A stretch of DNA of 64,000 nt from positions 77,060-141,059 of IMG/VR virus record IMGVR_UViG_3300013794_000014. One strand, written 5' to 3'. The notes under the pieces were generated by a model. The model was not told the DNA's origin. It saw only the letters and a list, made by a program, of their open reading frames with translations, and ran no database searches. Shown piece after piece: positions 1 through 57,083 of this stretch (positions are counted from its first letter, which is position 1; every line of letters begins with the position of its first letter). This DNA comes from a virus. Position numbers and translations under genes: made by a program.

Positions 1-708
1 AAATGTGTAGAAGGATCTATAAGTCAAGACTATTCAATGTCAAAATATGTATTGGCAAAACCAGAATGGCCACATGTATGGTTTATCGGTGGTTTAAAAG
101 TTAGAGGTGTCAATCTGATAACGGCTATTTGTGATCATCCATATGTTCAAAATGATGCTTTTGTACTTACTAACCATAAGCCAATTGAAATCATTGATAC
201 ATCTAATGAGACGTCATTCATGTTAGGTGTAGGAGACAAGATTGGAAACCTACATGGACAAAAAGGTGTAATTAACAATGTCTTTGACAAAAACCGTTTT
301 GAAATTATTCCGGAAACAATTGTCAGTGATATTTGGGAAACAAAAGCAACTACATTTAAGTATGTCGACTGTCTAATGTCTTTGACATCTGTCATTGAAA
401 GAGGTGCATTTGGACAATTTGTAGAGTGTTCATATTCATACGGTAAACCAATTGACGTTGAGATTGACGTACCATTTCAACCACTACAAACGGGTTACAT
501 TTATGACAACGAACTAGATGAATACTATATGGCAATATTTGGTATCTGTCATTATGTTATCATTGATAAATTTGCCAAAGATATGCAAACAGGTAAAGTG
601 TCAATTGACTATTTTGGACTATGTAACATATTGGCAAGAAAACGCTATGATTTACTGAAACATTACTTGAACTTAGGTGACATTGATGTCGACGTTAACA
701 AAAGATGA
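1..708 (+). CDS. RNA polymerase beta/Rpo2-like subunit, C-terminal double-psi beta-barrel part (5'-truncated by window edge)
   Basis: Frame is open from base 1. NLITAICDHPYVQNDAFVL resembles beta YNFEDSILV; GDKIGNLHGQKGVI has the two lysines 8 apart as in GDKMAGRHGNKGV; DCLMSLTSVIERGAFGQFVE resembles [20 protein letters not shown]. Confidence 0.85.
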   Translation, partial: KCVEGSISQDYSMSKYVLAKPEWPHVWFIGGLKVRGVNLITAICDHPYVQNDAFVLTNHKPIEIIDTSNETSFMLGVGDKIGNLHGQKGVINNVFDKNRFEIIPETIVSDIWETKATTFKYVDCLMSLTSVIERGAFGQFVECSYSYGKPIDVEIDVPFQPLQTGYIYDNELDEYYMAIFGICHYVIIDKFAKDMQTGKVSIDYFGLCNILARKRYDLLKHYLNLGDIDVDVNKR

Positions 709-1348
709 AATAAGAATGTTAATAATGGAAGAACCTAAACTACTTCTGAAAACTGGTAAGGTATTGAATACATGGCGTCTAATTATGGGACAAAGTATAA
801 TCCCTACATTTCATATCAAATACATGGAAGCAATAACAAATAGCGGTGAATATGTAACGCTTTACGACTTTGAAGGATTAACAGGTTATGATGAAGATGG
901 CACACCTTACGATATAACAGATATATCAAGAATTGTTGACATTGATGTCCATATATACTTTGAACGTAGTTATCTGTCAAATTTATCCGCCATTGAAGAT
1001 GTAGTCTATTATCCACCTGAAAGTCGTTATGTGACATTAGCGTACTTAATGGATATTGAAACTGAACCACTGTATATCAATTCTTTACCAATGTTTGATC
1101 ATACAAAAATTAAGTATAATTTTCGTGGAAATTTAGTTATTGGTATTGACAATTATCCAAAAATATTGCAAAAAATCAATTATATGGGTTGTAATTTGAA
1201 TCCAGACTATAATGGCATGGTTAGATTTGCTTACGAAGTTGAAGTACCTTATACAATGTTTTACAACAGAAAAGTCCATAATGAGTTAGTTGATATAATA
1301 CCAGGAGTTCCATTGGTTCAACATACATTAACGGTTACTCTTGTATAA
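677..1348 (+). CDS. hypothetical protein, coupled to the RNAP beta-like gene
   Basis: 223-aa ORF overlapping the upstream stop, with AGGTGA at its start; no motif recognised. Confidence 0.6.
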   Translation: MTLMSTLTKDEIRMLIMEEPKLLLKTGKVLNTWRLIMGQSIIPTFHIKYMEAITNSGEYVTLYDFEGLTGYDEDGTPYDITDISRIVDIDVHIYFERSYLSNLSAIEDVVYYPPESRYVTLAYLMDIETEPLYINSLPMFDHTKIKYNFRGNLVIGIDNYPKILQKINYMGCNLNPDYNGMVRFAYEVEVPYTMFYNRKVHNELVDIIPGVPLVQHTLTVTLV

Positions 1349-1792
1349 GTCTTCTTCACATCCTAGAACTTTACAAATGTAATTGACAAACTTTTTAACG
1401 GGCTTAAAATAATAAAATTGTGTATGTTTTAATTTCCGTAAATCGTAAAGTACAATGGTTGTCAGTAATGTTATTCCTGCATAATCAGCTAAATATTCAA
1501 AATTTGGTAATCCAATGTATGTTCCAATTGCACATAATGTCGAATATAACATCCAGAATACAACAGACCAACCTATCCAACGAACAGTCGCCTTTATTGC
1601 ACTTTTAATGAAATGTTCACGCTCATATGGCAACGGAACTGGAGCAGAATTTAAGTAAATTAAGAAATCAATAAACAGGCCTAAAACTACAAGTATGGTG
1701 GCAAAGATAAGTATATTGACATCGAGAAATTTTACAATGAGCGCAAGTGCCAAGGGGACTTTTATACCATTAAGGAGATTAAGTAGACACAT
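1328..1792 (-). CDS. membrane protein (3-4 hydrophobic segments)
   Basis: Hydrophobic stretches; GGTGA SD 6 nt before the ATG on the minus strand. Confidence 0.6.
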   Translation of the reverse strand: MCLLNLLNGIKVPLALALIVKFLDVNILIFATILVVLGLFIDFLIYLNSAPVPLPYEREHFIKSAIKATVRWIGWSVVFWMLYSTLCAIGTYIGLPNFEYLADYAGITLLTTIVLYDLRKLKHTQFYYFKPVKKFVNYICKVLGCEEDLYKSNR

Positions 1793-1804
1793 GGTGATTC
1801 ACCT

Positions 1805-54608: not shown

Positions 54609-55956
54609 CAACACATACATAAAAGAAAAGATTCAACAGATAACCTCAGATAAAAGAGTCCAAAGAATAATAGAGGTTTGTAGACAACTTAATAGAGCCG
54701 ACACCGATAGACTCATAATGATGAACATATCATTATCTGATAAAGAATGGACAGAGATATTCAAAGATGCAGTAGACAAATTGACAAAAATACATGTACC
54801 AACAATATACGGTAAAGTTGTCCAAATAGACTATGAAAATCTTGTGATGCTTCCAATAGAAGACAAAAACCGTTACAAAGTACTTGTCCTAGAAGAAAAA
54901 GACAATATGCTCCAAGTAACCGACATAAAAGACGCCAATAACTTCGAAGAAAATGAACTATTAGCATTAGTTGGTAGACACCCCTTCGTAGATACTCTCG
55001 GATGGATAATGACAAAAGTAACATTCAGTAAGGAACTCAAAGAAGTCATAGGAATTGGACAAAAAACATGGAAACAAAGAGGTGGAGACTTCGACGGAGA
55101 TGCAGCAATGATCATATTGCTTAAGTTACCAAAGAAATACTATGACAAATATGTACCAGAAGTAACTAGAAGCACATATAGATCACATGAATACATTAAG
55201 TTACCGAAGAAATCCAGTAAAGCAGTAATCAGCATAGAGTTCAACGACTTAACAATACCGAAGGTTGAATTCCACTATGTAAAAGACAACAAATGTAGAA
55301 TCTTTCCAGAATCCATAAGTCATTTGCAAAACTTAGAGACGTTAACTGGTGCTATACTCATGGCAATCAATATAGCGACAAACTATCGTGTCAAATGGAC
55401 TAAACAACAATTGAAACGTAATACAGAAATGCTCATAACAGCAATAAAACAAGAACTACAAACATTGAAACAAAGAAATCCACAGTTATTTGCAAAATAC
55501 GCAATAATCTTCAGTAAAATACATCCAACATTTCTACAAATAGTGACACCATTACTGTTCATTGACAACATCGACCTAGAAATGTACCAAGCAATACTAA
55601 GAGTACACATAAAAGACAAAGGTCCAAGTCTATTCGGATACCTTGAGAAAGTCTTCTTGAGTGTTGCACAAACCAGAGAAGACATTGAACGCGTACTTAA
55701 GTACATATCGAAACATCAACAGAAAGTCATTGACATGAAGAAAGCAGAACATTCACTATTAGACTACAATGAAGCGTTGATAAGTAAGAATAAAGAACAA
55801 CTAAAAGAATCAGAATTAAAAGACTTGTATGAAAGGTGGAAAAATGTAGATGCAAACTGGAGTAAAAACAAATGGCAACTCCTAGTATACGGAAAAACAA
55901 ACGACATAATAGACTTACTTGCTGCTATAGTCCATAAAATCTGTTATGAGAGGTGA
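54586..55956 (+). CDS. minimal RNA polymerase beta'-like catalytic subunit (RNAP-2)
   Basis: LVGRHP (RxP) followed about 35 aa later by QRGGDFDGDAAM (codons 55087-55101). Confidence 0.8.
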   Translation: MQTLGGNNNTYIKEKIQQITSDKRVQRIIEVCRQLNRADTDRLIMMNISLSDKEWTEIFKDAVDKLTKIHVPTIYGKVVQIDYENLVMLPIEDKNRYKVLVLEEKDNMLQVTDIKDANNFEENELLALVGRHPFVDTLGWIMTKVTFSKELKEVIGIGQKTWKQRGGDFDGDAAMIILLKLPKKYYDKYVPEVTRSTYRSHEYIKLPKKSSKAVISIEFNDLTIPKVEFHYVKDNKCRIFPESISHLQNLETLTGAILMAINIATNYRVKWTKQQLKRNTEMLITAIKQELQTLKQRNPQLFAKYAIIFSKIHPTFLQIVTPLLFIDNIDLEMYQAILRVHIKDKGPSLFGYLEKVFLSVAQTREDIERVLKYISKHQQKVIDMKKAEHSLLDYNEALISKNKEQLKESELKDLYERWKNVDANWSKNKWQLLVYGKTNDIIDLLAAIVHKICYER

Positions 55957-55961
55957 TCCGA

Positions 55962-57083
55962 ATGAGTGTAAATGTAAATACCATTCCTGAAACACTTCTT
56001 ACATCATTTCTTAACGAAATAATAGAAACAATTGTCAAACTTAACGATGTGGACGTAGACTTAACAAATGCATATATTAGAAAAATTCTAGGGTTGAAAA
56101 GTGTCAGATCCTCAGTTCCACATGTAGAAGGTTCAAGAACAACCCTATTAATGAACGGACATAAGACATTTGGCATAACCGCACTGTACAGCTCAACCTC
56201 ATTGAACCTACTAACAGCATTAATAGCATCAGAAGAACTTGATGAAGACATCGCAATACTAAATAAACCACTAAAAGCATATTTAGATATCAAAATTGAA
56301 AAACCAATACCAGACAACTGGGCAATTACTAGAAAAGATGGGTTTATCAAGAAAGGTGAACTTATTGCAAAAGGACCAGAACCATTCGACGAAATTAGAG
56401 CAAACATAAGTGGACACTTGAAAATCGCATTTAGACAAATAATACTTGAAGCAAAACAACCAATTACAACAGGAAGTAAAATCCAAAACATATTTCTGCA
56501 AAAACACGTCTTGAAAGCAGAACACAATAGATTCAGATTCGTAAACATGAAAGAAGAGAAAGTAAAAGTTACAAAGATCACTAGAAAGAACCTTAAACGT
56601 ATTGGACTTAGACCAAAAATCGTCAATATTGCAGAACATGTAGACAAACCAACCCTAGTAGCAGGTTCAACTTCAGTACTCAAAAGACGTTCATCAGGAA
56701 CATTGGCACAACTATGGTTAGGATACCAATTAGCGTTTACGAACAACAAAAATAAAAATAAACCGTCAAACGAAATGGATTGGAATAAACATAAGACAGT
56801 ATACGTGACAAAAGTCTATGATACAAAACATCAGACATATCATGACGCCATAATCGGAATTGGATGTTGGCTTGTAGCAATCAATTCAAACGGCTATGAG
56901 TACAAAATAGCAAACAAACATACAGATATATTCGGTAGGCATATTAATAGCGTGTCAATAGATCCATTTGCCTTCAAAGTCCTTCAATATAAATATCCTG
57001 AGTTATCTTACGCATTTATCGAATATCAACTTAGAATGCGTGAATTAAACTTACGTAACTACTTTAAAGGAGGTGATCTGTAA
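55962..57083 (+). CDS. minimal RNA polymerase beta-like subunit (RNAP-2)
   Basis: NLLTALIASEELDEDIAIL (ED motif), GSKIQNIFLQKHV (K-x7-K), TSVLKRRSSG; C-terminal SIDPF matches SIDYF of the 1..708 protein. Confidence 0.7.
   Translation: MSVNVNTIPETLLTSFLNEIIETIVKLNDVDVDLTNAYIRKILGLKSVRSSVPHVEGSRTTLLMNGHKTFGITALYSSTSLNLLTALIASEELDEDIAILNKPLKAYLDIKIEKPIPDNWAITRKDGFIKKGELIAKGPEPFDEIRANISGHLKIAFRQIILEAKQPITTGSKIQNIFLQKHVLKAEHNRFRFVNMKEEKVKVTKITRKNLKRIGLRPKIVNIAEHVDKPTLVAGSTSVLKRRSSGTLAQLWLGYQLAFTNNKNKNKPSNEMDWNKHKTVYVTKVYDTKHQTYHDAIIGIGCWLVAINSNGYEYKIANKHTDIFGRHINSVSIDPFAFKVLQYKYPELSYAFIEYQLRMRELNLRNYFKGGDL

Follow-up and report, generated by a model that had tools for sequence, protein, structure and literature searches.

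Two two-barrel RNA polymerases (RNAPs) in one viral genome are known from P23-45, the phiKZ-like phages, and some giant viruses. In P23-45, a virion RNAP fused to the tape-measure protein (gp96) transcribes the pre-early genes, including the gene of a second RNAP (gp64), and a duplication within the virus has been proposed for the two paralogues (Chaban et al. 2024, PMC10770324). The first tenth of that paper's sheet of multi-RNAP viruses, which is titled "Two RNAPs," gives two enzymes per genome (PMC10770324). Here, we analyzed a 64,000-nucleotide (nt) stretch of viral DNA, positions 77,060 to 141,059 of the IMG/VR record IMGVR_UViG_3300013794_000014 (hereafter, the window), and found that this virus carries three distinct sets of β′-like and β-like RNAP genes, designated sets A, B, and C. 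Sets A and C are gene pairs, and set B is the N-terminal region of a giant protein of 6956 amino acids (aa). A preliminary description of the window had proposed three virus-encoded RNAPs acting in a self-contained transcription cascade, and it had named P23-45 as a virus with two such enzymes, which is correct according to the published account (PMC10770324).

The arrangement resembles that of P23-45 in two respects. Both viruses encode a giant protein (5002 aa in P23-45) with a two-barrel RNAP, only partly confirmed here, at its N terminus and with membrane and peptidase domains further on, and in both, a second and small RNAP gene belongs to a block that has its own promoter motif, a duplication within the virus being probable. 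It differs from P23-45 in having three sets instead of two, in the division of sets A and C into two genes where gp64 is a single chain, and in that the β′ barrel of the giant protein is recognized by a cellular Pfam model. A phmmer search of residues 1 to 2300 of the giant protein against the PDB did not return the gp96 structures 8h2m and 8h2n among its matches.

Other described systems share individual features with this locus. As in phiKZ and AR9, which employ two enzymes for different temporal classes, the β′-like and β-like parts are separate polypeptides, and the set A β-like protein matches PHROG 3295, "RNA polymerase beta subunit" (E = 7.5e-6). In contrast, the phiKZ and AR9 enzymes have four or five subunits, with β and β′ each split (~2500 aa in all), and are encoded in genomes of >200 kb, whereas one small β′ and one small β make up each enzyme here (551 and 835 aa) in a 141-kb genome that has a third, fused enzyme as well. 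Structurally, both set C subunits match best to Rpb1 and Rpb2 of cellular (archaeal-eukaryotic) RNAPs and of nucleocytoplasmic large DNA viruses, and sets A and C each show the canonical succession of the β motifs ED, GxK-x7-K, R, and IFG..Y; unlike Rpb1 and Rpb2, however, the large subunits here lack roughly two thirds of their length (including the clamp, most lobes, and the jaw), and no small-subunit homologues were detected. The virion RNAPs of phi14:2, a crAss-like phage (gp66), and of N4-like phages also reside in very large proteins thought to be ejected with the DNA (PMC10770324), but gp66 belongs to the single-chain clade, and N4 has a T7-like enzyme. No INPHARED phage record showed similarity to the RNAP portion of the giant protein.

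Three gene sets for two-barrel RNAPs

Every motif quoted in the preliminary description was found at its position. A K-x7-K motif alone lies within chance, the giant protein having ten K-x7-K[GA] sites, and since K-x7-K and DxDGD are both weak on their own, each candidate was tested by homology and fold. By this analysis, the presence of three separate sets is well supported for sets A and C and for the β′ half of set B, and the third DxDGD subunit that such a claim calls for does exist (see below). A fourth DYDGD, in a 194-aa open reading frame (ORF) at 47072-47656, was rejected as a chance match, as no R-x-P precedes it. Whole-genome scans with the Pfam models Rpb1_2 and Rpb2_6 found only the proteins of the three sets, although divergent extra subunits could escape such scans, and the genes neighbouring sets A and C matched no RNAP family. 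No match to the T7-type RNAP family was found in the genome, the control genomes giving none either. Judged from their sequences, the three cores each appear to carry the full set of catalytic residues, with the β barrel of set B being putative, and all three are predicted to synthesize RNA.

Set C, with ~835 aa in total, was identified by its fold. The start of its β gene overlaps the β′ stop by 4 nt (coordinates of all features are given in Table 1). In the β′-like protein, the double-psi barrel occupies aa 74-194 and is followed by a helical region, while the β-like protein has a hybrid-barrel (flap-like) insert at ~aa 105-165; DFDGD is encoded at 55087-55101 and GSKIQNIFLQK at 56472-56504. 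As single sequences, the two proteins matched nothing in Pfam, PHROGs, or PDB sequence searches, the β′-like protein had no match in phage records, and a scan of a genome contig collection with the set C β alignment (A2) found nothing. Metagenomic data yielded 8 homologues of the β′-like protein, the lowest at 43% identity, and, for the β-like protein, 6 representatives reaching down to 28%, and every relative contig retrieved has the two genes side by side in this order; in a distant relative, the gene upstream of the β homologue has a weak precomputed Rpb1_2 match. Alignment revealed that R134-H135-P136, D171, D173, G174, and D175 are invariant in β′ (RHP and DFDGD in 11 homologues), as are E98/D99, G174-x-K176...K184, R193, and R245 in β. 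With the AlphaFold2 model of the β-like protein (predicted local distance difference test [pLDDT] score, 67.5), the top 50 Foldseek matches were all RNAP second-largest subunits (E = 3.8e-9), and the BFVD matches were viral Rpb2 homologues; the β′ model matched RNAP largest subunits and double-psi beta-barrel domains. The models thus match only largest and second-largest subunits, which confirms, on predicted folds, that set C is an RNAP. The set C β′ profile also touches the P23-45 tape-measure RNAP structure (8h2m/8h2n) at R-x-P...DFDGD (E = 0.017). Leucine-rich-repeat matches of the β′ profile (A1) arise from a low-confidence loop and were rejected.

The set C genes belong to a six-gene module, which the closer relatives also retain. 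Phmmer comparison of the genes flanking set C upstream with those of the relatives gave E values of 5e-38 to 1e-3. The upstream pair had no family match, to RNAP or otherwise, and the downstream pair had a weak TraB/PrgY match only; the four flanking genes may encode further subunits or factors. In the relative L009, a LAGLIDADG endonuclease gene (L009:7496-8158) is found just downstream of the set C module.

Set A is encoded in the replication gene cluster. The preliminary description, which saw only the β-like gene, had suggested that its DxDGD partner would lie beyond the window or in the missing 5′ part, and the partner is indeed encoded directly upstream; the two genes overlap by 8 nt and their products add up to 551 aa (297 + 254). 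The β motifs QNDAFVLTN, GDKIGNLHGQKG (window 232-267), SVIERGAFGQ, and IFGICHYVIIDK are in canonical order, with the canonical ED reading ND, while RYP and DIDGD are invariant in the alignment of the β′ family. Database matches of set A are weak, yet each falls on position-consistent sites: positions 96-151 of β′ match Pfam Rpb1_2 (E = 0.017), and β′ also matches residues 406-461 of the Pol V largest subunit (E = 0.005), whereas positions 209-254 of β match Pfam Rpb2_6 (E = 0.005) and β also matches residues 951-1037 of yeast Rpb2 (E = 0.1). In comparisons with set C, HHalign related the two β families with 92.6% probability (E = 4.6e-7), and the two β′ families were related with E = 0.0015 across R-x-P...DxDGD. 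Relatives at 68-83% identity retain the set A pair, its 8-nt overlap, and its neighbours; no relatives of set A or set C were found in a viral contig collection.

The preliminary description had also called for pairings to be predicted, and set A was modelled as a heterodimer whose catalytic loops touch. The ipSAE score was 0.88 in three runs, while the best of three controls scored 0.00. Of 80 solved complexes, 58 attained the mark used, as did 2 of 110 mismatched pairs. Contact agreement was at least 69% and partner pLDDT at least 82. In the modelled interface, β′ residues 79-85 (the DIDGD loop) face β residues 69-72 (QNDA), 96-99 (VGDK), and 107-111 (KGVIN), so that the two barrels are predicted to pack face to face into one active centre. 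Because RNAP complexes have already been solved, the score may reflect likeness to known RNAPs.

The β′ barrel of set B has GRRAINLL (aa 213), RYP (aa 352-354), and DYDGD (aa 390-394; 31489-31503) in canonical collinear order, and residues 229-399 of the giant protein matched Pfam RNA_pol_Rpb1_2 with 32.6-34.1 bits, above the curated cut-off of 25.3; HHalign related this region to the set C β′ family with E = 0.0086. About 1250 residues further on, putative β motifs are found, NIEDAVLIN (aa 1654-1662), KWTLPAGQKG (aa 1821-1830; 27181-27210), and PIDVIYSN..TRL (aa 1913-1927), which follow the canonical β order. Of the two barrels claimed for the giant protein in the preliminary description, the β′ part therefore holds by its Pfam score, while the β part was not confirmed statistically, and the second barrel is likely but unproven on these motifs. 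An Atlas feature search with residues 1501-2100 yielded no usable match.

The C-terminal part of the giant protein appears to resemble a tape-measure or ejection protein. This reading rests on its peptidase-like domain, its hydrophobic segments, and the position of its gene as the last one in the minus-strand block that holds the terminase and minor tail protein genes.

Profile comparisons placed sets A and C as the more similar pair, with the giant protein as the most divergent. In all three sets, β′ precedes β. Cellular RNAP operons have β and then β′. The barrel order is likewise reversed relative to the known single-chain enzymes: barrel A (β′) comes before barrel B (β) here, whereas gp96, gp64, QDE-1, and phi14:2 gp66 have B before A, and in the giant protein DYDGD at aa 390 precedes a putative barrel B at aa 1640-1830, opposite to gp96. 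The order shared by the three sets, being opposite to that of the known single-chain enzymes, indicates a separate fusion event, and by comparison with the known systems it would fit a duplication inside the viral lineage.

The set C block is read under rules of its own

The block of nine plus-strand ORFs that encodes set C differs from the rest of the genome in its T runs. TTTT was observed 0 times in the ORFs of the block, compared with 16.4 ± 4.0 expected and a minimum of 5 among 1000 synonymous shuffles within the block. Phe codons follow the same trend (48 TTC and 17 TTT in the block versus 20 TTC and 38 TTT in nrdD and polB together). Elsewhere in the genome, nearly every other gene contains TTTT, with a total somewhat under the expectation from T content. 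Runs of at least 5 T in the block are confined to spacers, where they follow each unit. Homologous modules of distant relatives are also depleted of TTTT (L012, 2 versus 31 expected; L015, 1 versus 18.5; L013, 2 versus 11), whereas the effect is weaker in closer relatives, with partial depletion in L009 (6 versus 12.8) and L006 (10 versus 18.5) and none in L010.

The block also has a private motif, GACAYACCMTTMAGGC, which occurs in exactly three copies genome-wide, all on the plus strand and in spacers that head the gene groups of the block. Related copies, CCGCGACAYACCYTT, precede the homologous genes in L009. Hairpins at 52095-52120 and 53363-53373 come right after motif copies 2 and 3 and are possible transcript 5′ ends, and a long A/G-rich tract (window 52006-52064) lies ahead of copy 2.

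These data show that the set C block is read under rules unlike those of the rest of the genome. TTTT avoidance together with the private motif thus gives the block its own reading rules, which do not by themselves show which enzyme reads it. A polymerase that starts at the private motif and stops at T-tracts fits the block best. Archaeal RNAP and Pol III characteristically terminate at T-tracts. By analogy with the tape-measure-fused virion RNAP of P23-45, the giant protein would be the best candidate for the reader, with a host RNAP of archaeal type as the main alternative.

A proposed transcription programme and its alternatives

We propose the following programme. The giant protein, packed in the virion, would enter the cell and transcribe the block at 51681-58159 from the GACAYACC motifs, stopping at the T-tracts in the spacers. 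The block would supply set C, which in turn would transcribe the long plus-strand block of metabolic and replication genes, set A included, and set A would then serve late transcription or primer synthesis. Such a cascade is plausible, with the special sequence rules of the set C block as its one independent line of support; we infer the assignment of enzymes to genes, the sequence of steps, and the independence from host RNAP. Three two-barrel RNAP cores, fused to the giant protein (B), in the conserved module (C), and in the replication cluster (A), together with this programme, constitute the best explanation overall, which we hold with moderate confidence.

Several observations weigh against it, some of them shared with the alternatives considered below. 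The shuffle expectation of 0.01 for GACAYACCMTTMAGGC is post hoc, as the pattern was derived from its own three copies. A place in the virion is suggested for the giant protein by analogy with P23-45, and no tail tube, chaperone, or capsid gene was found next to its ORF in any library scanned. In addition, homologues of the giant protein were found neither among proteins of 3825-12173 aa nor in metagenome contigs or phage records.

The host RNAP may stay in the programme, either reading the T-run-free block first or transcribing the late genes, in which case the cascade is not self-contained; we regard this as a realistic possibility that falls short of being probable. TTTT avoidance is restricted to the set C block, and T-tract stopping of the archaeal kind would let the host enzyme read it. 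The late genes of P23-45 are transcribed by host RNAP. An archaeal host has some backing: in the 22 nt preceding 134 starts, 37% of genes have a ribosome-binding site of the GGTGA(T) type and 3% have GGAGG, the habitat of the virus is hydrothermal vent metagenomes, and the PolB matches with the best coverage are haloarchaeal tailed viruses (22-24% identity). The first two features are compatible with a methanogen-like host and all three, weakly, with an archaeal one, while TerL is nearest to Streptomyces phages, two Methanocaldococcus virus records being among its 163 matches. Against a role of the host enzyme in reading the block, the three conserved elements ahead of it are not TATA-like and have no −35/−10 pattern, and a polymerase apparently delivered in the particle lessens the need for the host enzyme at the start.

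Set A might instead be a replication enzyme, a miniature two-barrel RNAP that makes primers or replication-coupled RNA for the B-family PolB, in which case transcription would be left to sets B and C, whether or not the host enzyme takes part. Set A sits amid replication genes in the order dCTP deaminase, RNase H, a 171-aa ORF, set A β′, β, ERCC4 nuclease, NrdD, clamp loader, and PolB, and this order is kept in relatives. No AEP primase, PrimPol, DnaG_N, or Toprim_2 match was obtained in the complete genome with the four Pfam models tried, and yet the virus itself encodes a PolB, a clamp loader, two ligases, helicases, and an RNase H. The location in the replication cluster and the lack of a detectable primase make a priming role a serious rival; moreover, at 551 aa set A has little room for promoter-recognition domains. 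On the other hand, a divergent primase may hide among the many unknown ORFs, given that only four models were tried. Enzymes for middle-gene transcription also usually lie in replication clusters, and we know of no two-barrel RNAP that is a dedicated primase. On balance, we consider the priming role rather unlikely. A fuller version of it, in which a possibly archaeal virus has a complete three-polymerase apparatus with one enzyme ejected together with the DNA, a second expressed from a pre-early operon free of T runs, and set A as the replicative primase, appears improbable.

We see only a slim chance that sets A and C are the sole working enzymes, with the giant protein carrying just a relic of an RNAP or a module with a single barrel. 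The second barrel is backed by three short collinear motifs, its profile comparisons were not significant (HHalign E = 0.42 and 0.81), and it had no PDB or Pfam match. However, the β′ barrel exceeds the curated Pfam cut-off with R-x-P and all three aspartates kept, the ED, K-x7-K, and R motifs have canonical order and spacing, and the maintenance of an open 20.9-kb reading frame speaks for function. Lastly, that the product of 1..708 is an alternative β partner for the product of 54577-55956, giving fewer enzymes than gene sets, can be dismissed as extremely improbable: the set A and set C β-like proteins are detectably related, but the former has a dedicated DIDGD partner whose gene overlaps its start and is kept with it in relatives, the set A pair was modelled as a specific heterodimer, and set C has its own translationally coupled partner.

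Genome context and significance

The source record represents a complete 141,059-bp genome with direct terminal repeats (CheckV completeness, 100%), and the window is the final 64 kb of this single contig (~34% G+C). A 24-nt unit, TGGTCCATCATAGTGTCCAACGCT, is repeated in tandem at both contig ends (genome 1-115 and window 63905-64000), and the assembly break probably lies inside this array. No close cultured phage was found, PolB having <30% identity to known ones.

Table 1. Gene sets, domains, motif copies, and gene blocks (window positions unless marked as genome positions)
Feature	Position	Strand	Details
Set A β′-like gene	genome 76117-77010 (L005:8117-9010)		297 aa; RYP...DADIDGD; just outside the window
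Set A β-like gene	1..708	+	last 235 of 254 aa; gene start 56 nt before the window (genome 77003)
Giant ORF	11800..32670	-	6956 aa; RNAP region N-terminal
Set B RNAP region	26371..32073	-	~aa 200-2100 of the giant protein
Metallophosphatase-like domain	20098..20382	-	giant protein aa 4097-4191; Pfam Metallophos, E = 4.1e-7; PHROG phosphoesterase
Three strongly hydrophobic segments	15586..16617	-	aa 5352-5378, 5500-5522, 5664-5695; Kyte-Doolittle
Peptidase/endolysin-like domain	12685..12930	-	aa 6581-6662; PHROG 23178 (peptidase), E = 1.5e-14; PHROG 34252 (endolysin), E = 6.7e-14
T-run-free block of nine ORFs	51681..58159	+	no sense-strand TTTT; T content 0.22-0.25; encodes set C
GACAYACCMTTMAGGC copy 1	51647..51662	+	ahead of ORF 51681
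GACAYACCMTTMAGGC copy 2	52079..52094	+	ahead of ORF 52185; followed by hairpin
GACAYACCMTTMAGGC copy 3	53347..53362	+	ahead of ORF 53420, first gene of the set C module
Two unknown genes (200, 158 aa)	53420..54608	+	upstream of set C; order kept in L006, L009, L010
Set C β′-like gene	54577..55956	+	459 aa; RHP aa 134-136, DFDGD aa 171-175
Set C β-like gene	55953..57083	+	376 aa; ED aa 98-99, G-x-K176...K184, R245
Two unknown genes (144, 173 aa)	57083..58159	+	downstream of set C; order kept in relatives
Long plus-strand block	genome ~139.6 kb to 88.8 kb, spanning the contig junction	+	metabolism, DNA-modification, and replication genes
Minus-strand block	11800-51438	-	terminase, minor tail protein, head-related genes, 6956-aa ORF
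Short plus-strand block	51681-59079	+	holds set C
Two minus-strand genes	59688-62530	-	downstream of the short plus-strand block

Two further elements are candidates for control signals. The motif ACATTTACGT has 11 copies genome-wide against 1.07 expected, of which 5 are in spacers, 4 of these lying 35-97 nt upstream of co-oriented starts; examples are the copies at genome 32837, 35247, and 35404 and the one that precedes terL on the minus strand at window 39348, and from this placement it is a candidate second promoter class. An imperfect palindrome of ~30 bp, TTGATACATTTCAATATTTAAGTTTATCAA, is present in five copies (window 62635-62680 and 63144-63190; genome 551, 2103, and 6698 [L001]), ~25-35 nt ahead of plus-strand start codons on both sides of the contig junction, which makes it a candidate operator or promoter for one gene class. 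When 62 spacers were searched de novo for promoter classes, no motif dominated, and only ACATTTACGT and the palindromic element stood out.

Of the two genes for ATP-dependent DNA ligases, at window 43290-44948 (minus strand) and at L002:3425-4741, one sits among virion genes. A 489-aa protein (window 7658-9127) with weak portal matches (PHROG 12, E = 3.7e-7) is encoded between the clamp loader and PolB, apart from the other virion genes. Six consecutive large plus-strand proteins (L002:16975-20000 and L004:4109-10333) carry DUF2341 and/or Laminin_G_3 domains; their genes are distant from the terminase block, and the proteins are probably adhesins or fibres.

Three RNAP sets in a 141-kb virus would show how far RNAP duplication and specialization can go within one virus, and this virus may run most of its own gene-expression programme. 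If the host is archaeal, the virus would, to our knowledge, be unusual among archaeal viruses in encoding an RNAP of its own. Sets A and C would be among the most reduced RNAP cores of the cell type and useful for models of the minimal polymerase and of RNAP origin, set A being the smallest two-barrel polymerase that we know of. If set A does prime replication, it would be a new kind of primase. Finally, the T-run-free operon with its private motif offers a testable promoter and terminator pair.

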